Assembly (NCBI GenBank): GCA_965217775.1
Contig: CBDCJH010000002.1
Span: 5,216,001 to 5,280,000, forward strand
DNA: 64,000 bases
Direction of reading: 5' to 3'
From: Acidobacteriota bacterium
Lineage (GTDB): Bacteria > Acidobacteriota > UBA6911 > RPQK01 > JAJDTT01
A model generated the notes under the pieces. It worked only from the letters and a program-made list of their open reading frames with translations, did no database searches and had not been told where the DNA came from. Shown here piece by piece: positions 7,086-37,344 of the stretch; position 1 is the first letter of the stretch; the number at the start of each line of letters is the position of its first letter. A program made the position numbers and the translations under genes.

Positions 7086-8969
7086 ATGTTCCAAGCCACC
7101 GGATATCAAGTGCGGGCGGGATCGAAACCGCGGGGGCGGTGCTTCCTCGCCCGGTGGTTGGTTCTGGGTCTTCTGTCCTCCAACATCTTCGCGACCGGTC
7201 AGGATCAGGAGCTCAATGCGGCCCTGATCGGGGCCGCCGTGGAGGGCCGCACCGATCAGGTCGCGGCCTTGTTGGACCGGGGCGCCAGCATGTTGGTCCG
7301 GGACCCGGATGGATTGAACCCCCTCATGTACGCCGCCATGGGCGGGAATGAACAGACCGTCCGCCTGCTCCTGGCCCGGGGGTCGGAACTGGAAGCCAGG
7401 ACCCGGGACGGCGCCACCGCCCTGATGATCGGTTCCGGATCCGGACATGTGGCTGCCGTTGGCGCCTTGCTGGAGGCGGGAGCGGACATACGCTCCAACG
7501 ACGCCAGTGGACATACGCCGTTGGTCTGGGGAGTACTGGGAGGGAGCGTGGCGGTGGTCCGGACACTGTTGGCGGCCGGGGCCGGACCCGACGCGCGAGA
7601 CAAGACGGGCTGGACCGTCCTGATGCGGGCATCGTCCCAGGGCGACCTGCCTGTGGTCGAGGCTCTGCTCGAAGGAGGATCCAAGGTCGGGACTCGGAGC
7701 CGCGACAACTGGACGGCTCTCGCCTTGGCCTTGTTCGAGGGCCACGGACGAACGGCTGCTCTCCTGGTCCGCCACGGAGCCGACGTCGATGAGGTGGACG
7801 TCAACGGCATCCCGCTCCTGATGCATGCGGCGTCGGGAGGGAAGACCGAAGCGGCCCGATTCCTGCTGGCCCACGGCGCCGCCACCGGCTTTCGGGACAA
7901 GGAGGGCAACGGACCACTGGCGGCGGCGGCCTACAATGGCTTTGCACCCATCGTCGAGGCTCTGATCCGGGCGGGGGCCGTGGTGGACAGCCGCGACAGT
8001 CAAGGCCGGACACCTCTCACGCAGGCCGCCTCCCAGGGGAAGGCGGATGCGGTCAAGGCGCTTCTGGCGGCGGGCGCGGATCCGCAGATCAAGTCCAATC
8101 GGGGCCAGACGGCTCTGGACCTGGCCGTCTGGTACGACCACACGAAGGTCATCGAAGCGCTGCTCCCGGCCGGGGAACGGGTCGATACCCCCGACGAGGC
8201 GGGTCGAACCCTTCTCGTGCACGCCGCGTTGGAAGGAAACGAGGCGACGGTCAAGGTCCTGCTGGCCCGGGGGACCGATCCGGACCGGCCGGACCGGGAG
8301 GGGAGGACGCCGCTCATCTACGCCGCCCTCCATGGTCACGCCGAAGTGGCCCGGCGGCTCATCGACGGCGGCGCCCGGCTCGACTCTCGCAGCAACGAGG
8401 GTTGGACGGCCCTGGGGCTGGCGCTGAGCCAGGACCGCGGTCCCATCATCGACGCCCTCTTGGCGGCGGGGGTGGATGTGAATTCGGTGGCCCCGCACAG
8501 CCAATCTTTCCTGGGAATGGCGGCCTACCGGGGGCGACTTGAATCGGTTCGGAAACTGTTGCAACGCGGCGCTCGTGTCGGAACGCGAGGCGCGGGGGGC
8601 CAGACGCCTCTCGCCTTCGCGGCGTATCAGGGATTTCCGGAGATCGCCAAGCTGCTGCTGGACCGGGGGGCGGACCCGGATGTCCAAGACGATTCCGGCC
8701 GGACCCCACTGATGCAAGCCGCCTGGAACGGTCATGCTGAAGTGGCGGAACTCCTACTGGACCGGGAGGCCCGGATCGACGCCCAGGACGGTGAGGGCGC
8801 CACTGCCTTGGCCCTTGCCGCGGCCCGAGGTCAGACGGACCTGGTCCGGCTGTTGCTGAGCCGCGGCGCAGACGTGCGTATCCGGAACCACCAGGGACGG
8901 ACTCCCCTCATGTTGGCGCAGGGGGAAGGCCGGAAGGTCACGGCCAGATTGCTCCAGGACCGCGAGTAG
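7086..8969 (+). CDS. secreted ankyrin-repeat protein (~17 repeats)
   Basis: Signal-like N-terminus followed by tandem 33-aa G-T-P/A-L-xx-AA repeats. Confidence 0.93.
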   Translation: MFQATGYQVRAGSKPRGRCFLARWLVLGLLSSNIFATGQDQELNAALIGAAVEGRTDQVAALLDRGASMLVRDPDGLNPLMYAAMGGNEQTVRLLLARGSELEARTRDGATALMIGSGSGHVAAVGALLEAGADIRSNDASGHTPLVWGVLGGSVAVVRTLLAAGAGPDARDKTGWTVLMRASSQGDLPVVEALLEGGSKVGTRSRDNWTALALALFEGHGRTAALLVRHGADVDEVDVNGIPLLMHAASGGKTEAARFLLAHGAATGFRDKEGNGPLAAAAYNGFAPIVEALIRAGAVVDSRDSQGRTPLTQAASQGKADAVKALLAAGADPQIKSNRGQTALDLAVWYDHTKVIEALLPAGERVDTPDEAGRTLLVHAALEGNEATVKVLLARGTDPDRPDREGRTPLIYAALHGHAEVARRLIDGGARLDSRSNEGWTALGLALSQDRGPIIDALLAAGVDVNSVAPHSQSFLGMAAYRGRLESVRKLLQRGARVGTRGAGGQTPLAFAAYQGFPEIAKLLLDRGADPDVQDDSGRTPLMQAAWNGHAEVAELLLDREARIDAQDGEGATALALAAARGQTDLVRLLLSRGADVRIRNHQGRTPLMLAQGEGRKVTARLLQDRE

Positions 8970-9990: not shown

Positions 9991-10037
9991 GTTTCGCACG
10001 TCATCACGGAAAAATAGACTGTCCCATTCTTGCGCTG

Positions 10038-11609: not shown

Positions 11610-11994
11610 GCGAGGTGCGGCGGGACAGACGGCTCTCGCCTGCGCGGCGTACCAGGGATTTCCGGAGATCGCCAAGTTGCTGCTGTACCGGGGGGCGGAC
11701 CGGGATGTTCAGGACGACGATGGTCGGACCCCGCTGATGCAAGCCGCCTGGAACGGTCATGCTGAGGTGGCGGAACTCCTACTGGATCGGAAGTCCCGGA
11801 TCGATGTCCAGGATGGTGAGGGCGCCACTGCCTTGGCCCTCGCCGCGTCCCGAGGCCAAGCGGATCTGGTCCGGCTGCTGTTGAGCCGCGGCGCGGACGC
11901 CGGTATCCGGAACCACCAGGGACGGACTCCCCTCATGCTGGCGCAGGCCGAGGGCCGAAAGGTCACGGCCAGATTGCTCCAAGAGCAGGAATAG
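11610..11994 (+). pseudogene. diverged duplicate of the last 385 bp of the ankyrin gene
   Basis: Gap-free colinear with 8585-8969, largely conservative changes, no proper start; begins just after the motif at 11578. Confidence 0.9.
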
Positions 11995-27744: not shown

Positions 27745-27808
27745 GAGAACCTCGATTCGGACAATTGGGGATCTACGACCTGATTTCGCTTTGCCCCGAG
27801 ATTTGACC

Positions 27809-28801
27809 ATGTCGTACCGTTTCGCGGATCCCTGGTTTCTCAGCCTGCTGCTGATCCTTCCGCTGATCCTGGTCTGGACCCTGAGGCGGGCGGGCCGCCG
27901 GAACTCCAGTCTGCGGTTTCCGCATGTGGGATCTCTCAAGAAGGCCTATAAGCCCATGGCGGCCCGTTCCCGCCATTTTCTATTCGCCCTTCGGTTGATT
28001 GCCCTGGGGCTTCTGGTTCTCGCCGCGGCCCGGCCCCAGAGTGGCGCCACGCGTGAGGAGGTGACGGCGGAAGGGATCGACATCGTGCTGGCATTGGATC
28101 TGTCCAGTTCCATGCTGGCCCAGGACATCGAGCCGGACCGGATCGAGGCGGCGAAGCAGGTGGCCGCCGATTTCATCCGCCGCCGGACCAACGACCGCAT
28201 CGGCTTGGTGGTCTTCGCCAGCCACGGTTTCGTCCAATGTCCCCTGACCCTGGACTACGGGATCCTTCTGGATTTTCTGGACGAGCTGAAGGTGGGCCTG
28301 CTGGACGACGGGACCGCCCTGGGCATGGGCATCGCCACCGCGGTCGGACGTCTCAAGGAAAGTGAAGCCGAGTCCAAGGTGTTGATCCTGCTCACCGACG
28401 GCCGCAACAACGCGGGGGAAATCGACCCCGCCACCGCGGCCCAGATGGCCCAGGCCTTCGAAATCCGCATCTACTCCATCGGAGCCGGAACCCGGGGCGT
28501 GGCCCCCTATCCGGTGGACGACCCCGTCTTAGGCCGCCGCCAGACCCGGATTCGTGTCGACATCGACGAAGAGGCTCTTCGTCAAGCCGCCGACGTGACG
28601 GGCGGGCGATATTTTCGGGCCACGGATCGTGAGAGCCTGGAGCAGATCTACAGTGAGATCGACGAATTGGAAAAGAGTGAGATCAAGGTGAACCAATACA
28701 CTCAATACGGAGAGCTGTTCCCCTATCCGCTGGCCCTGGCCGTCGTGATTCTGTTGGGTGAGCTGGGACTCTCCGGAACCTGGTTTCGGAAGATACCGTG
28801 A
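27809..28801 (+). CDS. batA: BatA VWA protein
   Basis: RFADP..L, ARPQ, DLSSSM, LTDGRNNAG. Confidence 0.9.
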   Translation: MSYRFADPWFLSLLLILPLILVWTLRRAGRRNSSLRFPHVGSLKKAYKPMAARSRHFLFALRLIALGLLVLAAARPQSGATREEVTAEGIDIVLALDLSSSMLAQDIEPDRIEAAKQVAADFIRRRTNDRIGLVVFASHGFVQCPLTLDYGILLDFLDELKVGLLDDGTALGMGIATAVGRLKESEAESKVLILLTDGRNNAGEIDPATAAQMAQAFEIRIYSIGAGTRGVAPYPVDDPVLGRRQTRIRVDIDEEALRQAADVTGGRYFRATDRESLEQIYSEIDELEKSEIKVNQYTQYGELFPYPLALAVVILLGELGLSGTWFRKIP

Positions 28802-28828
28802 AACCAGACATACCGGAGGGAAGGGATC

Positions 28829-29860
28829 TTGTTTCGGTTCGGTGAACCGCAACTGCTGTATCTGTTGGTTCTGTTGCCGCTGTTGCCGGCTTTTCTGTTC
28901 TGGGTAATCCGGCGTAAACGGCGCGGGATCCGGGTCCTGGTGGGTCCCCACATGGCGCCCCGGCTCACCGGGAACTCCAGCAGCCGGCGCCAGTGGTCCA
29001 AGGGGCTGCTGGTGGTGGCCGCCGTCGGCCTGCTGTTGGGTGGTCTGGCCCGGCCCCAGTTCGGGACCCGTTTGGAGACGGTGGAAAGAGAGGGACAGGA
29101 TCTGGTGGTGGTCCTGGATCTGTCCGCCTCCATGCTGGCCCGGGACATCCAGCCGAACCGCCTGGAAAAGGCCAAGCACGCCATCGGCACGCTCATCGGC
29201 CTGCTGGAGGGGGACCGCATCGGGATCGTGGGGTTCGCCGGAGAGGCGTTCGTCCAATGTCCCCTGACCCTCGACTACGGGGCGGCCAGGACGCTGCTGG
29301 CCTCCATGGGTCCGGAGTCGATCCCGGTGCCGGGAACCGCGTTGGGCGAAGCCCTGCGCAAGGGGTTGGAGCTCTTCTCGGCCGAGGAGAAGAAGCACAA
29401 GGTGATGGTTCTGATCACCGACGGCGAAGACCATTTGGGACGGCCCCTGGAAGTGGCCCGGGAGGCGGCCGGCCAGGGAGTGGTCATCCACGCCGTGGGA
29501 ATCGGGTCGATGCAGGGAACCCCCATACCGGTCTTCGATTCCGAAGGCCGTGCCCAGGGTTTCAAGAAGAACAGGTCAGGCGAAGTGGTGATGACGCGGC
29601 TGGACGAGAGCACGCTTCGGGAGTTGGCCGAGGAGACGGGGGGCACCTATCACCGGGCCTCGCCTGGAGAGTCGGAATTGGAGGGGATCTACGGAGAAGT
29701 GGCGGCCATGGACAAGAAGCAGCTTGCCTCCATCCAGGTGGCCCAATATGAGGAGCGGTTTCAGATTCCCGTCCTGTTGGGTCTGGTGCTGCTGTTGGCC
29801 GACGTCCTGTTGTCCGAGCGGCGGCGGGTCGACAGAGTCTGGAGAGGGCGTTTTCGGTGA
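28829..29860 (+). CDS. batB: BatB VWA protein
   Basis: ARPQFG, DLSASM, ITDGEDH, ERFQ. Confidence 0.88.
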   Translation: MFRFGEPQLLYLLVLLPLLPAFLFWVIRRKRRGIRVLVGPHMAPRLTGNSSSRRQWSKGLLVVAAVGLLLGGLARPQFGTRLETVEREGQDLVVVLDLSASMLARDIQPNRLEKAKHAIGTLIGLLEGDRIGIVGFAGEAFVQCPLTLDYGAARTLLASMGPESIPVPGTALGEALRKGLELFSAEEKKHKVMVLITDGEDHLGRPLEVAREAAGQGVVIHAVGIGSMQGTPIPVFDSEGRAQGFKKNRSGEVVMTRLDESTLRELAEETGGTYHRASPGESELEGIYGEVAAMDKKQLASIQVAQYEERFQIPVLLGLVLLLADVLLSERRRVDRVWRGRFR

Positions 29861-30744
29861 TCGGGTTTCGGCGTCTGTTCGCAGGACTGTTGCTGGCGGG
29901 ACTGCTGTCCGGCTCCCAGCCTCTCTGGAGCCAGGCCGGCAGGGAGAAAGTTCTGGAGGGGAACCGGAATTTCTCGGAAGGGGACTACGACAAGGCTCTG
30001 GAGCTGTACCGGGAGGCACTGGAAGAGAGCCCGGAATCTTCGACCATCCGTTTCAATCTGGGGGATGCGCACTTCAAGAAAGAAGATATGGAGGATGCCG
30101 CGGATTCCTTCTCCCAGGCGTTGCAGTCGGAGGACCCCGAGATCGAGTCCCGGGCCCAGTATAATCTGGGCAACTCGCTCTATCGCCAGGGCAAGCTCCA
30201 GGAGAGCCTGAGCGCATACCGGGAGGCGCTGAAGCTGGCGCCCGGCGACCGGGACGCCAAGCACAATCTGGAGTTCGTGCTCAAGCAATTGCAGGAGCAG
30301 CAACAGCAGCAGAAGAATCAGAACCAACAGGGAGACGGGGAGCAGGATAAGGACAAGGATAAGAACCGGGACGAGAGTCAGTCCGACGGCGAGGATCAGT
30401 CACAGCAGGGCCAAGAGGACCGGCCGGAAGATCAGGAGGGCCAGGACCAGCAGGAAGAGGGGCAACAGTCCCGGGACCAGAATGACCGGCCGGATTCCGA
30501 AGATCCTGAACAGCGCCCGGGGGACCCACAGGAAAACAGGGACGAGAAGTCTCGCGCCGGCAGTGGCGACCAGCAACGGGAACCCGCTCAGGAGGACCAG
30601 GTTCAGACTCCTCCCAGTGGTTCCCAACCCATGTCTCGTGAAGCAGCAGAGCGGCTCCTGGAGGCCCTGGCTCAGGCCCAGGCGGGCGTCAAGAAGAAAC
30701 TCGAATTGCGCCCGGGAACCGTGAAGGTAGAGAAGGACTGGTGA
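29857..30744 (+). CDS. batC: BatC TPR protein
   Basis: TPRs (YNLGNSLY), Q/D/E-rich linker, EKDW C-terminus. Confidence 0.88.
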   Translation: MIGFRRLFAGLLLAGLLSGSQPLWSQAGREKVLEGNRNFSEGDYDKALELYREALEESPESSTIRFNLGDAHFKKEDMEDAADSFSQALQSEDPEIESRAQYNLGNSLYRQGKLQESLSAYREALKLAPGDRDAKHNLEFVLKQLQEQQQQQKNQNQQGDGEQDKDKDKNRDESQSDGEDQSQQGQEDRPEDQEGQDQQEEGQQSRDQNDRPDSEDPEQRPGDPQENRDEKSRAGSGDQQREPAQEDQVQTPPSGSQPMSREAAERLLEALAQAQAGVKKKLELRPGTVKVEKDW

Positions 30745-32573
30745 GAAGGATCTGCGGAACACTTCTGGCAGCGGTCCTGCTTTGCGGACCGGCAGGCGGT
30801 CAGGACCCGGCCGTCCAGGCGTTTCTGGACCGTACTTCCGTCTTCGTGGGCCAGCAGTTCACACTCTCGGTGGAGGTTTCGGGCAGGGGCGCCACCGGTG
30901 CCGGAGAGCCGAGCTTGCCTCCCATGGAGGAGTTCGCCGCGTTCCTGGGAAGGCGGAGTTCCCAGCAGTATCGGTTGGTGAACGGACGCATGTCCGCGTC
31001 CAGGACCTTCAGCTTCCATTTTCAGGCCACCCGGGAAGGCGAGTTCGAGATCGGCGCGGTCCAGGTGCAACTGGACCGCAGGGTCCACAAGACGGCCCCT
31101 CTTCGGATCCGGATCGGCGGCACCGGTCGACCGGCGCCCACTCCTCGTGGCGACCGCCGGCCGGCGGGCACGGCTGCCCAATCCGATCTCTTTGTGCGTG
31201 CAACGGCCGACCGGGAGCGCATTTATGAGAACCAGGCCCTGGTGGTGACTTACAAGATCTATACGCGCGTCAGCGTTTCCTCGTACGGGATCTCCAAGCA
31301 GCCGGACACGGCTGGTTTCTGGGTGGAAGACTATCCGCAGACCCGGCAGCCACATACCGAGGAAGTGATCGACGGACGGCGATATAGGGTGGCGCTGATC
31401 AAGAGGATGGCGCTTTTCCCCACCGGCGCTGGGGAAAAGGAGGTCGGCCCCCTGGTCCTGGAATGCCGGGTCCGGACCCGAGGCGTCTCCCGGGACCCCT
31501 TCCGAGGCTTTTTCAGCGGTGATCTCTTCGGCCGGGAGGTGACCCGGCAACTGGCTTCCGATTCGCTTCGGGTGCAAGTCCTGCCCTTGCCCCAGGAGGG
31601 CAGGCCCCCGGAATTCCAGGGCGCCGTGGGAAGTTTCTCCATTGCTGGTCAATTGGACAAGTCTCAGGTCAAGGCCAACGAGGCCCTGACCTACAAGGTT
31701 CGGATTTCCGGCAGCGGCAATCTGGCCGGACTGAGCGAGCCCCAAATTTCCTTCCCTTCCAGCTTCGAAGTCTACCCGCCAAAGGTGGAGCAGCAGATCA
31801 GACGGGATCCGAGCGGGATCTCGGGAGAGAAGACCTACGAATACGTGCTCATTCCCCGCCGTCCCGGTCCGGTGCGGCTGGAGCCGGTGAAGCTGGCCTA
31901 CTTCGACCCGGTCGAGGGCGCCTACCGGATCAGCCGCGCTCCCGAGTTGTCCGTCAACGTGGCGCCGGGAGACCACTTGGCGGAAGCGGCGGAAGCAGGG
32001 CTCTCCCGCCAGGAGGTGAAGCTGCTGGGACAGGATATCCGGTTCATCAAGATCGGGTCCGATCCATTCCGCAAGACCGGCGAGTCCTTGCTGACGGCCA
32101 AGGGGTTCTGGATTCCCTTCTCCTTGCCCCTGCTTTTCCTTCTGGGCGCCGTCGGTTACAGGCGGCATCTGACGCGGCTCAAGGGAGACGTAGCCTACGC
32201 GCGGGCCAGGAGGGCTCGCCGCGTCTCCCGGAAGAGACTGGCCCACGCCCGGACCCACTTGGCCCAGGGTGCCGAGAAAGAGTTCTACCAAGCCGTGGGA
32301 AAGGCACTCATGGGCTATCTGGCCGACAAGCTCAACGTGGCCCAAGCCGGAATGGTCAGTCAGGAGGTCAAGGAGACTTTGCGGGCCAGGGGAATCTCGG
32401 AAGAGTCCCTCACGGGCTATTTCGACTGTCTCCAGATCTGTGATTTGAAGCAGTTCGCGCCGTCTTCCTCCGCCGAGCAGGAAATGCAGGACCTGATGGC
32501 CAGCGCCCGGGACGCCGTGACCCGGATGGAGCAGGAGTTCGCCTCCCGCCCGGAAAGAAGGTATTCTCAGTGA
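30741..32573 (+). CDS. batD: BatD protein
   Basis: Repeated Ig-like domains, FQGAVG, ISGSGNL, late TM helix. Confidence 0.88.
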   Translation: MRRICGTLLAAVLLCGPAGGQDPAVQAFLDRTSVFVGQQFTLSVEVSGRGATGAGEPSLPPMEEFAAFLGRRSSQQYRLVNGRMSASRTFSFHFQATREGEFEIGAVQVQLDRRVHKTAPLRIRIGGTGRPAPTPRGDRRPAGTAAQSDLFVRATADRERIYENQALVVTYKIYTRVSVSSYGISKQPDTAGFWVEDYPQTRQPHTEEVIDGRRYRVALIKRMALFPTGAGEKEVGPLVLECRVRTRGVSRDPFRGFFSGDLFGREVTRQLASDSLRVQVLPLPQEGRPPEFQGAVGSFSIAGQLDKSQVKANEALTYKVRISGSGNLAGLSEPQISFPSSFEVYPPKVEQQIRRDPSGISGEKTYEYVLIPRRPGPVRLEPVKLAYFDPVEGAYRISRAPELSVNVAPGDHLAEAAEAGLSRQEVKLLGQDIRFIKIGSDPFRKTGESLLTAKGFWIPFSLPLLFLLGAVGYRRHLTRLKGDVAYARARRARRVSRKRLAHARTHLAQGAEKEFYQAVGKALMGYLADKLNVAQAGMVSQEVKETLRARGISEESLTGYFDCLQICDLKQFAPSSSAEQEMQDLMASARDAVTRMEQEFASRPERRYSQ

Positions 32574-33331
32574 ACCCACGGGCGATCGCTCTGCTCTCGC
32601 TGACTTTGATCTTCGCTCCGGTTTGGGGGGACTCTCGGGAGGGTCTCTTCCAACAGGGCAACCGAAATTACGAGGCTGGTGAATACCGGAAGGCCCTGGA
32701 GAGCTACGCGAGCGTTGCCGCCATGGGTTACGAGTCGGGCCCACTCTATTTCAACATGGGAAATTGCTACTACAAGCTCGGCGAGACGGGGCAGGCCATT
32801 CTTCACTACGAGCGCGCGGCTCGACTGATCCCCGGAGATGAGGATCTGGAGGTGAACCTGTCACTGGCACGGCTCAAGGTGGTCGATCAAATTCCCGAGC
32901 TGCCCCGGTTCCGGCTCCTGGTCCTCTTGGAGCGCTTCGTGTTCTTTCTTCCCCGCAGCGCTCTATGGGTCCTGATGTGGAGTTCCTACGCCGTTCTGGT
33001 GGCTGCCTGGATCCTCAGGCTTCTTTGGAGTCGGGGCCGCAGGTTCACCGGCAAGATCGTCTGGGCCGGAGTTCTCCTGCTGATCGGGTCCTCCCTATGC
33101 TTGGCTGGTCAGATTCGCCAGGAGAGAGAACCCTCCGAGGCCATCATCCTGGCCCAGGAGGCCCGGGCCGTGAGTGCCCCGGGAGAAGAAGGCATCCAGG
33201 TCTTCACGCTCCACGAGGGGACCAAGGTGCGAATTCAGGAAGTCTCGGGGTCATGGGTCGAAGTCCTTCTCGCCGACGGTAATGTAGGATGGCTGAAGGC
33301 CGACTCCATGGCCAGGATCGCTCAGCAATGA
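32570..33331 (+). CDS. batE: BatE (TPR + SH3b)
   Basis: YFNMGNCYYK, LHEGTKV, GW at the C-terminus. Confidence 0.88.
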   Translation: MNPRAIALLSLTLIFAPVWGDSREGLFQQGNRNYEAGEYRKALESYASVAAMGYESGPLYFNMGNCYYKLGETGQAILHYERAARLIPGDEDLEVNLSLARLKVVDQIPELPRFRLLVLLERFVFFLPRSALWVLMWSSYAVLVAAWILRLLWSRGRRFTGKIVWAGVLLLIGSSLCLAGQIRQEREPSEAIILAQEARAVSAPGEEGIQVFTLHEGTKVRIQEVSGSWVEVLLADGNVGWLKADSMARIAQQ

Positions 33332-34101
33332 GATCGAAAATCGGAAAGCCGGTGGTTTTGGTGCTGGCCGCAGCGCTCCTGATAGCGGGACCCGTGTTTG
33401 GGGCGATCCGGCAGCAGGAGAAGCCGATCCATCTCATCGAGGCTGCCGAACGGGGAGACGTGGACGCGGTGAAGTACCTCCTGGACCTCGGTGTGGACGT
33501 CAACGGGAGGGACGAGCAGGGAACCACGGCTCTGACCGCCGCCGCTTGGGTGGGTCAGACCGAAGTGGTCAAGATCCTGTTGGAACGAGGCTCCGAGATC
33601 GATCCCCGGGATGAACTGGCCGGAATGACACCCCTCATCTGGGCCTGCTGGAAGGGATATGGTCAAACCGTGGGGGTTCTTCTGGAAGCCGCAGCCGACG
33701 TGAACCTCAAGGACAAGAACGAACGGGGCGGGCTCATGGGAGCCGCCTGGGAGGGGCACACAGGGATCGTCAGGATGTTGCTTGCCGCCGGCGCCCAGTT
33801 GGAATCGCGTGATTACACTGGCGCCACCGCCCTGATGTGGGCCGCCTGGAACGGCCGCCTGGAAACCACCCAAGCCCTGCTGGCGGCCGGGGCCGCCATC
33901 GATGCCCGCGAGAACGAAGGCAAGACGGCACTCATCGGCGCGGCGACGGACGGCCATCTGCCAGTGGTGCAAGCGCTGGTGAACGCGGGAGCTCGACTGG
34001 ACGTCAAGGACCAGAAGGGCCTTACCGCCCTTTCGGCCGCAGCCTCCAACCGCCACACCGAGGTCGTCCGCTATCTACAAGAGGCCGGCGCCACCAGGTA
34101 A
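33328..34101 (+). CDS. secreted ankyrin-repeat protein
   Basis: Signal peptide plus about 7 ankyrin repeats; ATG overlaps the batE stop. Confidence 0.9.
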   Translation: MRSKIGKPVVLVLAAALLIAGPVFGAIRQQEKPIHLIEAAERGDVDAVKYLLDLGVDVNGRDEQGTTALTAAAWVGQTEVVKILLERGSEIDPRDELAGMTPLIWACWKGYGQTVGVLLEAAADVNLKDKNERGGLMGAAWEGHTGIVRMLLAAGAQLESRDYTGATALMWAAWNGRLETTQALLAAGAAIDARENEGKTALIGAATDGHLPVVQALVNAGARLDVKDQKGLTALSAAASNRHTEVVRYLQEAGATR

Positions 34102-34174
34102 CTGAATCCCGGGACCCCGGGCGTTGAGATAGCTCCTCAGTCTCCTTCTCTCACTCCTCACTCCTCGTTTCCCG

Positions 34175-34296
34175 TCACTTCCAACCCGGCACGAACTCCC
34201 GGTCCCCAGGAATGACGTTCAACTGTTTCCTCCCTTCAACTGTTTCCTCCCCCCGAACTCCCGGTCCCCAGGAATGACGTTCAACTGTTTCCTCCC
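34175..34296 (-). pseudogene. diverged copy of the sulfatase 3' end with nested tandem duplications
   Basis: RKQLNVIPGDREFVPGWK* vs RRQLNVIPGDRGFEPGWE* at 35929-35985; a 42-bp unit is repeated at 34193 and 34255. Confidence 0.8.
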
Positions 34297-34298
34297 CC

Positions 34299-34432
34299 GG
34301 AAAGGGACAGTCTCGATTCCCGGTCCGCGATTCCGGTCCGCGGTCTCGATTCCCGGTCTCGCGCGATTCCCGGAACGGGAACGGCTCAACAGAACGGTTC
34401 AACAGACCGCGGAAAGGGACAGTCTCGATTCC
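34299..34432 (-). repeat. two GACTGTCCC-core motifs left of RAYT
   Basis: GGAAAGGGACAGTCTCGATTCC at 34299-34320 and 34411-34432. Confidence 0.85.
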
Positions 34433-34579
34433 GGGTCGCGATCCTCGTTCAAATCTGCTTCCCTCGTTCTCCTGAACCGTCAGAAAAATGGGGAAAGTCC
34501 AGAGTCTATTGGGCGGTTTCCGTGATCTGGGTCGTCCGGTGCCACGGTGGCAGAATCGACGGACGGAGATCAGGCGAGT

Positions 34580-35515
34580 CTACGTGACGAAGGCGTGCGA
34601 GCGCTGCTCCCGCAGGGAAAACAGCACTCCGCCCAGTTGGGGGATGGGGTGTCGGCGACGCCGATATCGACCTTGCTTTCGATACGTCTCCAGCAGTTGC
34701 GCCACTTTCTCTGCCGGACCGACGGCCAATCCGTCCGTCAGAAATCGCAAACGACGGCGAAAGGCTCCGGCACGGGTAAATCCACGTCGCTGCTCCTGAT
34801 GGAGGATCCACCGGGGGATTGCGGCCTGGTTCTCCCGGGTGGGGACGGCTCCTCGATAGTACAAGCGAGCCCGGTAACTCCTGTACACGTCGGTTCCCGG
34901 ATCCGAGGGGAACAGTTCCTCCAATGGAATCAGGTCGTGATCCTTGCCGGTGAGTCTCCAGCGGGCTGAGCCCCACTTCCATTGCTCGGGCCGCTTGACC
35001 AGTCCGGCTCGGACGGCGTTGAGTTCCACGTAAAGAATGGCGTCTTGGACCGCTTCGGTTCCCAATAGTTCCGGGTTCTTGAAACGTTCACTCCAAAAAT
35101 GGCCTCGCCGTCGAAACTGGTGGTTGAACCACACGGCATACAGCCCGTCCACGTTCTGCATCAGTTTCGACACGTCAAAGAGACGCTGGTTGAAAGCCTT
35201 CCATTGGGCGACGGTCCAATCGGCGGTTTTCTTCTCTACCTTTCGCCCATAAAGCTTGTCGGCGCTCTCCATCAACTCCTTGCGGGACAAGGAGCGAGGC
35301 TTCTCAAAATGGACGACGAAGTGGAAGTGATTGCCCATGATCTGAAACGCGGCCAAACGACACCGGTAGACACTGACGTAGAACAAAATCATGTCCAGGA
35401 GTTTGCGACGGGCTCGCCGGTCTTCGAAGGGGAACCAATCGGTCCAGCCAGTGACTCGATTGGTGAGGTGATAGAAGGCGGCTTCCTTGCTTTTGTGTCG
35501 CGCGGTTCGGGGCAT
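34580..35515 (-). mobile_element. REP-associated tyrosine transposase (RAYT / Y1 HUH, IS200-like)
   Basis: MPRTAR, YHLTNR, IMGNHFHFVV (HUH), GHFWSERF, YVELNAVRAGLV..PEQWKWGS. Confidence 0.9.
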
Positions 35516-35706
35516 GGGCACGGTCCTCGGTTAATCGGACTCGGTCTCGGAGGGGAGTCAGTTCGCACCCCTGATGACAACAACGATTCAGAATTGAGAA
35601 AGGCGAAGGAAACTCAAGAAAATCAGCAAATCTCGGGTTTCCGGAAGTAGCCGAGGAAGCTTGACCAGGTGACCACCTGAGTCGTCTCAGGACGGAAAAA
35701 CACAGG

Positions 35707-35758
35707 ACGGAAAAACAGACTGTCCCCTTCTCACGGAAAAACAGACTGTCCCCTTCTC
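35707..35758 (+). repeat. tandem pair of 26-bp GACTGTCCC-core motifs right of RAYT
   Basis: ACGGAAAAACAGACTGTCCCCTTCTC twice; inverted relative to the left pair. Confidence 0.88.
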
Positions 35759-35759
35759 A

Positions 35760-35848
35760 AGAAGGGTCTCACTGCCCTTGGGGCCGCAGCTTCCAACCGG
35801 CACACAGAGGTCGTCCGCTATCTACAAGAGGCCGGCGCCACCAGGTAG
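35760..35848 (+). pseudogene. diverged duplicate of the ankyrin gene 3' end (34013-34101)
   Basis: KGLTALGAAASNRHTEVVRYLQEAGATR*; 7 silent changes (including the stop) and 1 amino-acid change; 35807-35847 is identical to 34060-34100. Confidence 0.92.
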
Positions 35849-35855
35849 GGGCTCC

Positions 35856-35918
35856 TGGGAGGGGACATTCTTGTCCCCCGGACATCCCGGAATCGAGGGT
35901 TACAAACCCCCACTCCCA
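35856..35918. repeat. degenerate REP doublet between convergent genes
   Basis: TGGGAGGGGACATTCTTGTCCCC...GAGGGTTACAAACCCCCACTCCCA. Confidence 0.5.
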
Positions 35919-35928
35919 TGCCTCCCCG

Positions 35929-37344
35929 TTACTCCCAACCCGGTTCGAAACCCCGGTCTCCGGGGATGACGTTCAACTGTCTCCGCAAGTCGAGGCAAGC
36001 CTCCTCCCAGCGGTCGAGGTCATCCCTGAGTCGGCTGACGGCGTCCGGGACCGCCGCCCGCTGCAGGAGGTTGTCCAGTTCGCAGGGATCCTGCATGAGA
36101 TCGTAGGCTTCGTCACCGTACTGGGGATCCCGGATGTAGGAGAACTCCTGGCTCCGCCCGGCTCGAACCAGGGCGTTTCGCCGACCCGAATTGAAGGTTC
36201 CGGTGGGAAAGGTTGACTTGAGGTGTCCATGGTAGTCGCCGACTTGGGCGAAGGCGACACGGCGCAGCGGCCGTCTCGCTCCCCGGCCCACCCACGCCAT
36301 CAGGTCCCGGCCCTGAGCGTATTCGGGAACCGGAATGCCGGCCAGGGAGAGGAAGGTGGGAAAAAGATCCACGAGATCCACGAGGCCGGGGATCCGGATT
36401 CCCCGGTGAGCCGTCAGATTCGTGGGTGGGCGGATCACCAGCGGGACGTGGGTCAGGCATTCGTACGGAACCTCGCACTTCTCGAAGAGTCCCTTCTCCC
36501 CCATGAAATCGCCGTGGTCGGAGGCGAAGATCACCCAGGTGTTCTCCAACAGGTCCCTTTCCACCAGAGCCTGGAAGACCCGATTCATCTGGTCGTCCAC
36601 GTAGCGGATCATTCCGTTGTAGACGGCCACGACCTTCTTGAGATCGTGTTCGGAAGCCTCCTCGGTTCTGACTTCCTTGAGAGCCTGGTTTTGCCAAGCG
36701 GGCCTTTCTCCGTCGTGGTCCATCACCGGGAGATCGACCTGACCGGGGTCCACCATGGAATCGTAGGGGGGAGGCACGAAATAGGAAGGATGGGGGTCGT
36801 TGAAGGAGAAGTGGAGAAAGAAAGGCATTCGGGACCGCCGTGCCGTGTCGATCATGCGGATCGACCGATCCGCCAGCAGCGCCGAATGTCCCTCCTCGGG
36901 AGCGCAATCGATGGCTCCGCAGGACCAGCCCACGTCTCTGCGGCCATGGGAGTACTTGGTCTCCAGGGCGCGGGCCAACGGACCAGGCTCGCGCAGGTCC
37001 ACCTGTTCATACCAGCCGCGGCTCAGGTTCCTACCTTGTTCGAAATGACCCGAGACCGCGGTGTAGTAACCGTGCGAGGCGAAGAACTCGGACATCTGCG
37101 GCAGGTTCAGGGGAGCTTTGTTCTGCCAACAGGTGACCTGGTGGACCAGCGGATGCACCCCGGTGAAGACGGAGGCCCGGCTGGGGGTGCAGATGGTGCT
37201 GGCGGCATAGGTCTCGGGGAAAGTGATTCCCTCTGCCGCCAGACCCTCCATGAAGGGGCAGGAGATCAAGGGGTTCCCCAGAATGGGCGCCGCCGAGGCC
37301 TTGAGTTGGTCGGCAGTGATGTAGACGAGGTTGGGCTTGTCCAA
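35929..37344 (-). CDS. sulfatase (Cys-type)
   Basis: PNLVYITADQ, CTPSRAS FGly motif, DPH, SDHGD. Confidence 0.93.
   Translation of the reverse strand: MDKPNLVYITADQLKASAAPILGNPLISCPFMEGLAAEGITFPETYAASTICTPSRASVFTGVHPLVHQVTCWQNKAPLNLPQMSEFFASHGYYTAVSGHFEQGRNLSRGWYEQVDLREPGPLARALETKYSHGRRDVGWSCGAIDCAPEEGHSALLADRSIRMIDTARRSRMPFFLHFSFNDPHPSYFVPPPYDSMVDPGQVDLPVMDHDGERPAWQNQALKEVRTEEASEHDLKKVVAVYNGMIRYVDDQMNRVFQALVERDLLENTWVIFASDHGDFMGEKGLFEKCEVPYECLTHVPLVIRPPTNLTAHRGIRIPGLVDLVDLFPTFLSLAGIPVPEYAQGRDLMAWVGRGARRPLRRVAFAQVGDYHGHLKSTFPTGTFNSGRRNALVRAGRSQEFSYIRDPQYGDEAYDLMQDPCELDNLLQRAAVPDAVSRLRDDLDRWEEACLDLRRQLNVIPGDRGFEPGWE

Follow-up and report, generated by a model that had tools for sequence, protein, structure and literature searches.

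This analysis concerns an insertion between two convergent genes, encoding an ankyrin-repeat protein (A) and a sulfatase (B), in a 64 000-nucleotide (nt) stretch of the genome of an Acidobacteriota bacterium (GenBank assembly GCA_965217775.1, contig CBDCJH010000002.1, positions 5,216,001 to 5,280,000 of the forward strand; hereafter the window, to which coordinates refer unless stated otherwise). The insertion is a Y1 transposase gene enclosed by terminal inverted repeats (TIRs). A diverged extra piece (stub) of the 3' end of the ankyrin gene (A') lies to its right, and one of the sulfatase gene (B') to its left. The source genome is designated G000 (contigs C1 and C2), its congeners are G001 to G008, and individual element loci carry L numbers. 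The features of the junction are as follows.

33289..34101, plus strand: ankyrin-repeat gene A, intact, open reading frame of 270 amino acids
34013..34101, plus strand: 3' end of A, with A' as its second copy; 34060-34100 (41 nt) is identical in the two
34102..34174: left spacer, in no other sampled haplotype (42-55% to others); assigned to a putative foreign patch
34175..34231, minus strand: stub B', last 18 codons and stop of a sulfatase allele of an unsampled lineage
34232..34293, minus strand: slippage copies of B' separating stub and TIR, first a partial one, then 34192-34231 repeated exactly (40 nt)
34297..34321, plus strand: outer left TIR, core GGGACAGTCT at 34304; the joint of the putative foreign patch is at its outer end
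34409..34433, plus strand: inner left TIR, core at 34416; from a lineage-specific rearrangement, absent from G007
34580..35521, minus strand: TIRYT-type HUH/Y1 transposase, 313 amino acids, H65-F-H67 and Y164 intact
35707..35758, minus strand: two tandem 26-nt right TIRs, cores ending at 35726 and 35752; G007 has one copy
35760..35848, plus strand: stub A' (ankyrin 3' end), separated from the TIR by 1 nt; C1-type allele
35849..35928: right spacer, of the kind common at empty sites (88% identity with C1 and G006)
35929..37344, minus strand: sulfatase gene B, intact, 471 amino acids

A (34013-34100) and A' (35760-35847) are 91% identical over 88 nt, with 8 differences and, in addition, a TAA/TAG change at 34101; six of the codon differences are synonymous and one is non-synonymous, and the similarity is beyond chance (E = 1e-27 against the 6.4-Mb genome). 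B' (34175-34231) differs from the end of B (35929-35985) at 11 of 57 nt, the translations being RKQLNVIPGDREFVPGWK and RRQLNVIPGDRGFEPGWE, respectively, each followed by a stop; three amino-acid changes private to B' suggest some decay. The two spacers are 47% alike, which is the background level. A preliminary description of this DNA had given the same layout (A, B', motifs, transposase, inverted motifs, A', B), and all of its coordinates held on recheck, as did its statements that A and A' differ almost only at silent sites, share a 41-nt identical block and are followed by different spacers; an exact 40-nt second copy of part of B' (34254-34293), which adjoins the left TIR, was absent from it. 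The right spacer (35849-35928) is a member of a hairpin repeat family that is dispersed in G000, where at least 15 partial matches occur, and the spacers at this junction vary between species.

The transposase protein matches Pfam Y1_Tnp (PF01797) above cut-off, and residues H65, H67 and Y164 are invariant across 60 homologues. A sequence search of solved structures gave chance-level matches only; the top fold match of the predicted model (pLDDT 89) is TnpA-REP (4er8, E = 2.3e-6). A C-terminal extension of ~120 amino acids is present and is folded in the predicted model, and none of 60 family members has a Pfam match in this part to a helix-turn-helix, the C-terminal domain that marks TnpA-Y1 subclass 2.1. 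The Y---NP signature of TnpA-Y1 class 2 is replaced by Y164-VEL-N168-A169, the alanine being nearly invariant in the family. The gene is bracketed by inverted GGGACAGTC repeats, the TIRs (GGGGACAG on the right and AGGGACAG on the left, 78% alike over 23 nt), which by eye are not palindromes; it is the sole open reading frame between them, and no restriction or modification genes are present. G000 has 11 full copies (86-99.7% protein identity, two of them 99.7% alike), seven congeners have 4-11 copies each and the fragmented eighth has one; identical copies occupy two G002 loci, and the reading frame and catalytic residues are kept in 62 of 63 genus copies. Metagenome relatives of the enzyme (16 loci) were too distant or partial for use. 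The preliminary description had started from the premise that the gene is a domesticated RAYT. The number of copies and the near-identity of two of them contradict this, as does the score against the NCBIfam REP-RAYT model NF047646 (48.1 bits, under the cut-off of 80).

By its sequence features the element is a multi-copy TIRYT-type Y1 transposase cassette between TIRs that fits the TIRtron/TIRYT group (Di Nocera et al. 2013; PMC3733652). In the part of that work on which we draw, TIRtrons likewise consist of a RAYT-like Y1 gene flanked by inverted repeats whose core is of the GGGGWSAS type, the repeats are also scattered alone, and Acidobacteria are named as a distinct group. The element probably belongs to TnpA-Y1 subclass 2.1 (Quentin et al. 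2018; PMC6006769), which would equal RAYT group 1 of Bertels et al. 2017 (PMC5581495), a group with the top duplication rate among RAYTs (6.2%) in the portion of the latter paper used here.

Empty sites and the insertion in a second species

Contig C1 (144 kb) is a second-strain haplotype of C2 5150-5303 kb that covers the whole window at ~92-97% identity; its ankyrin/sulfatase junction is empty and can serve as an empty-site control. Related genomes with an empty junction, which the preliminary description had proposed to seek, do exist, clean empty sites being present in C1, G006, G004 and G001. G003 and G005 have other element variants at or near the junction, and G002 has a repeat together with 7.5 kb of other DNA. 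In G005 (L018, 3300-17700) the junction is enlarged by ~14 kb and contains two sulfatase stubs, an ankyrin stub and a decayed transposase gene.

The same insertion is carried by G007, a separate species. Short-read contigs of runs X7 and X9 match 34071-34221 exactly, and in run X11, which also has the empty form, 35819-36028 is matched with a single difference. A strain-chimeric assembly might have been suspected because the assembly contains two haplotypes of the region (C1 and C2) and 7.5% contamination, but with the layout repeated in G007, short-read contigs across both flank junctions and the pattern present in eight genomes, this explanation is largely refuted and its remaining probability is negligible.

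G000 and G007 are 98.5% identical in A, 99.3% in the transposase gene and 100% in A', which is 18 nt longer in G007; the right joint of G000 is correspondingly 18 nt shorter and its TIR is doubled. On the left, the G007 sequence between the ankyrin stop and the TIR's outer end is unlike that of G000: the spacers are 55% alike, and the sulfatase stub of G007, which extends 12 nt further into the sulfatase, differs from that of G000 at 11 of 57 nt (46 of 57 alike). The G007 stub is fresh, with 7 synonymous changes and 1 non-synonymous change. Since the two genomes share the left TIR and the sequence just inside it, the change stops at the outer end of the TIR. A' agrees with the empty-site strain C1 at 7 of the 9 positions at which A and A' differ, and B' is 9-14 of 57 nt away from each of nine sampled working sulfatase ends. 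A common donor for A' and B' is therefore unlikely and, as judged from these comparisons, the two arms are of unlike origin and were installed in separate events.

The preliminary description had explained the locus by a single circle, made of the transposase gene and the A/B junction of a related strain, that integrated Campbell-style in the 41-nt block. All A/A' differences are on the TIR side of this block and the left patch starts within it, and both fit a crossover there. Nevertheless, G007 and G000 have the element, A and A' in common and differ in the left spacer and stub, and one crossover cannot yield both left sides; together with the unlike origins of A' and B', this excludes the single-circle form, which we regard as scarcely credible. 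The suggested search for circle junctions yielded none among the joints listed (15 of 24, from contigs of four runs), a weak result because contigs drop rare forms. Two other ideas were dropped: that the whole end of A is foreign (its last 41 nt share their state with C1 and A', and sliding windows gave no clear drop), and that a hairpin guided target choice at the right joint (the joint of G007 lies elsewhere).

Gene-end duplicates across the genus

The survey covered 64 of 65 genus matches in 9 genomes (one short fragment was excluded), with 3.3-kb flanks in which the element and high-copy repeats were masked. Direct duplicates of at least 40 nt, within 800 nt on both sides, were scored. Such duplicates bracket 20 of the 64 copies, at 9 of 17 loci, compared with 2 of 200 random 942-nt segments and none of 15 other insertion sequence (IS) copies of G000; the listed cases fall in G000-G007 and not in G008. 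They are 40-264 nt long and 70-97.8% identical, none of the 20 being exact, and in 18 of them one copy ends 40 nt or less from the TIR word. The duplicates are the 3' ends of genes facing the element.

Codon differences were analysed in 27 gene-end pairs, which remained from 31 rows after removal of three wrong-frame rows and one paralogue, two cases outside the 800-nt rule being included. The 900 codons display 140 synonymous and 90 non-synonymous changes and three new stops, and third codon positions hold 157 of 258 changes (61%). This bias indicates that the stubs are recent pieces of working alleles from other lineages rather than decayed self-copies, as the preliminary description had supposed for the present locus, and it rules out neutral decay of an old exact duplication as the sole cause. 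Polarity goes both ways, the stub being nearer to relatives than the working copy (A', L070) or further from them (B', L055). At the 414-kb locus the duplicates measure 87, 235, 131 and 129 nt in different species; these different end points at one locus imply that joints are remade.

Convergent gene pairs flank 43 of 61 copies, whereas such pairs make up 19-25% of gene pairs and flank 2 of 13 other IS. When the TIR sites of G000 were considered irrespective of whether they have a transposase gene, a duplicate was found on the far side at 21 of 87, versus 6 of 150 random sites, and TIR-jointed duplicates also bracket cargo that lacks a transposase gene. The longest word shared outside the two TIRs gives little indication of a short target-site duplication, being mostly 4-8 nt, as in the null; shared words of at least 9 nt occur at 6 of 53 copies (2 of 280 in the null), and stutters outside the TIRs show a modest excess (20 of 53 versus 95 of 500 random).

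Loci were grouped by mapping far flanks to G000, rearranged copies being placed by one flank. Of the 64 copies, 61 are at loci common to at least two genomes, and both element orientations are found at five loci and in the 1.2-Mb cluster. The transposase gene tree follows the genome (20 changes; shuffles 36-49) and not the locus (47 changes; shuffles 44-53). On this sequence evidence, old sites with gene conversion, inversion and loss would explain the locus fidelity equally as well as repeated re-entry. The genomes are mosaic in identity; comEC is present in all nine, and dprA and mutS are present. No Ku gene was found in G000, which leaves classical end-joining unsupported.

Several other arrangements were encountered. 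In the window, the 3' end of a second ankyrin gene is duplicated (8585-8959 and 11610-11984, 375 nt, 88.8%). A sister-type repeat, GGGACAGTCACG (11586), lies 24 nt from the start of the stub at 11610, and the 2.6 kb of other DNA bracketed by the two copies contains repeats at 10025, 10454 and 11516 and no transposase gene; at this locus C1 has a 246-nt, 89.8% duplicate with partly different contents. At 1201-1212 kb of G000 C2, three transposase copies, one of them with an internal stop, are clustered with three pieces of one gene end, and a stub together with a repeat is duplicated elsewhere with 99% identity. C2 also has two near-exact tandem duplications with the repeats at their boundaries, at 407764-410105 and 5112520-5113687 (1.1 and 0.6 kb, respectively). 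The two flanks of L057, L062, L065, L089, L095 and L101 map far apart in G000 (e.g. 414 kb and 2871 kb) and mark rearrangement breakpoints. Upstream of the ankyrin gene (27791-33331) lie two von Willebrand A genes, TPR genes and a long BatD-like gene, a run that we take, from the translations, to be BatA-E-like. NCBIfam matches to secreted ankyrin effectors were far below cut-off, reflect the repeat only and were discarded.

Origin of the duplicates

What calls for explanation is a recurrent layout in which the stubs are alleles of working genes, the joints abut TIRs and the two sides are independent of each other. The reading that we favour, while granting it slightly less than an even chance, is that additive recombination between strains left the duplicates behind, the incoming DNA being held by homology at one end and attached to a TIR at the other. 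The cassette would keep to a restricted set of convergent intergenic sites across the genus, and the events would be these: (i) DNA of a related lineage is anchored by ordinary homology in a neighbouring gene, (ii) its other end, which falls at no fixed point within the far-side gene, becomes attached to the TIR at the latter's outer end, (iii) the junction region is then present twice, once per lineage, with either the resident end displaced (as for A') or a foreign overhang caught (as for B') and (iv) selection keeps the outcomes in which both genes are whole. As only these outcomes would survive, the spare pieces would be gene 3' ends. The present locus would need at least two events, one on the right (A', C1-type) and one or two on the left (the spacer and B' in G000; the other spacer and stub in G007).

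We infer that the joint arises while DNA passes between cells, with transformation as the means of entry; the transposase would catalyse the joint by an HUH nick and strand transfer, and slippage repair would give rise to the stutters. The enzyme is proposed as the joint-maker because of the positions of the joints, the intact residues in 62 of 63 copies and the behaviour of Escherichia coli TnpA-REP, whose in vitro activity, in the part of the source used here (PMC3333891), includes cutting at some distance from its site and strand exchange between partner molecules. That the TIRYT of this genus is a site-specific single-strand ligase joining related-strain DNA to its TIR is a possibility that we entertain only tentatively and consider doubtful.

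A number of observations weigh against additive recombination. No duplicate was found at 44 of the 64 copies, and the 20 cases are not independent, some sharing descent (L058/L073, G000/G007), so that 20 overstates the number of events. The homology of the left patch at the ankyrin side amounts to at most the last 41 nt, and a homology anchor is usually longer than that. The search for a donor of the left spacer and of B' was fruitless (none in 30 relatives, no metagenome matches, and only known genus loci among genome contigs). Near-exact (97-100%) duplicates occur beside TIRs within G000, which indicates that joints are formed in cis too, and the absence of exact duplicates may be a matter of survivorship, exact repeats excising the element. 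Because comEC/dprA are common, being present in 10 of 14 control genomes, they are no proof of transformation. Finally, gene-end duplicates were found at none of the 57 homologues scored in other genera (36-79% identity; 3 of 60 were excluded for short flanks). The expectation that homologous RAYT loci would show flanking gene-end duplications thus held within the genus (20/64) but not beyond it. The preliminary description had itself named homologous loci without duplications as grounds for refutation, and on that score a mobility route intrinsic to the element is not supported. This result, together with the 44 copies, means that the enzyme alone is insufficient.

In the other genera, near-identical copies are found at unrelated sites, with shared sequence reaching only about to the repeats among the comparisons listed, and the enzyme family can, to judge from these sequences, move without arms. 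The duplicates would then need a genus-specific addition, which would most simply be frequent recombination between lineages. Two copies in G023, which belongs to another family (L150 and L151), are 99.8% identical to each other and 79% to the protein in the window; they lack flanking duplicates and likely reflect recent transfer.

The near-exact TIR-bounded duplicates of G000 are also what would be expected if exact duplicates were made in one cell by the transposase at its TIR (through adjacent re-joining, a local hop or sister exchange) and later reassorted between strains. We regard this origin in cis as possible though doubtful, and just as doubtful the form of reassortment envisaged, in which crossovers inside the 1-kb element and its flank unite halves of different lineages while exact duplicates are excised and diverged ones persist. 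It would accommodate the right joint of G000, 18 nt shorter than that of G007 and with its TIR doubled, as well as the mosaic genomes, the homogenisation of transposase genes within genomes and the loci common to many species. However, each case would require a fresh joint in an element-bearing donor at the same locus and transfer before the stub decayed; in G007, with its fresh stub and a transposase gene 99.3% alike, the crossover would be confined to ~150 nt below the gene, and none of the 20 duplicates is exact.

A widened circle route, in which the cassette and one captured arm circle between strains, integrate by a single crossover and undergo tandem collapse over several rounds, strikes us as rather unlikely, as does the origin of such circles by one-ended excision or by recombination between duplicates. 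The TIR-proximal position of both stubs agrees with it, as do the restriction of the A/A' differences to the TIR side of the 41-nt block, the shared loci of 61 of 64 copies with clean empty sites in C1, G006, G004 and G001, and the tandem copies with arms at 1.20-1.21 Mb. On the other hand, several cases are non-reciprocal, one gene end being repeated with no matching stub opposite (L055), the 15 of 24 joints listed include no circle joint, and the homologues elsewhere have spread as near-identical, armless copies to unrelated sites.

Homology-facilitated illegitimate recombination needs no transposase according to the part of the source drawn on here (PMC3240628), and the TIRs and stutters might be passive microhomology spots at which host repair closes homology-anchored foreign DNA. 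Although duplicates do occur at TIRs with no nearby transposase gene and the trait is limited to the genus, we consider an uninvolved transposase very unlikely, given that none of the 15 other IS copies of G000 has duplicates, that joints are at the outer end of the TIR, where the gene shows no consistent resemblance to the TIR sequence, and that 62 of 63 copies keep frame and catalytic residues.

Relation to known systems

Each of the published systems considered here resembles the duplicates in part; what is cited of them is limited to the portions of the sources drawn on. The long target duplications of restriction-modification (RM) insertions (Furuta et al. 2010; PMC2853133) are variable, imperfect direct repeats of more than 30 nt, some over gene 3' ends; they are mostly from competent species, and a cycle of release and reinvasion was proposed for them, unproven. 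The duplicates described here are similarly direct repeats of more than 30 nt, variable in length and matched by a single copy at the empty site. Unlike the RM type, they accompany a Y1 transposase with TIRs, are 70-98% identical and codon-biased alleles, abut TIRs and are remade one-sidedly. In homology-facilitated illegitimate recombination (PMC3240628) one end is homologous, the other is joined without homology and DNA is added, much as the left patch combines ankyrin-end identity with a TIR joint; there, however, the free end joins at chance spots, whereas here it joins a transposon end, repeatedly and at the same loci. That process takes place on uptake of foreign linear DNA and depends on RecA. 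An IS may also lie between the two copies of a duplication with no short target duplication (Ngan et al. 2024; PMC11708052), but that case involves a large exact duplication in one clone and a DDE enzyme. Our duplicates are short and stem from different lineages. Integrative elements may carry a replacement 3' end of their target gene, so that the target stays whole and the displaced end is left as a stub. In contrast to these, the present elements have no integrase and no fixed crossover core, and their end points vary between species.

The descriptions of TIRtrons, in the portion drawn on here, hold no mobility test and no mention of flanking duplications or shared-locus fidelity; in this genus there are 4-11 copies per genome and duplicates at 20 of 64. 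Our literature search, which did not extend to subscription papers and supplements, yielded no publication that describes diverged gene-end duplicates at the ends of Y1/TIRYT elements; nor did it yield TIRYT experiments or assays, and only two works name TIRYTs. TIRtrons, long target duplications, homology-facilitated illegitimate recombination and an IS centred in a duplication are already in print; the present analysis contributes the duplicate counts with controls, the allele test and the comparison with G007.

For the question of how RAYT-like genes persist and move, this genus offers a countable footprint, controls, complete genomes and exact joints. Even if the ligase reading is not true, the loci show an insertion element that retains its sites from species to species, with copies homogenised genome by genome. 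If it is true, the cassette would survive replacement by empty alleles and enter empty orthologous sites through one-sided homology, foreign cargo genes would be installed at TIR-marked sites, and gene C-termini would be swapped as a by-product. This would amount to a new route of gene gain and gene-end exchange, and to an enzyme that ligates arbitrary DNA to a tag of ~22 nt.

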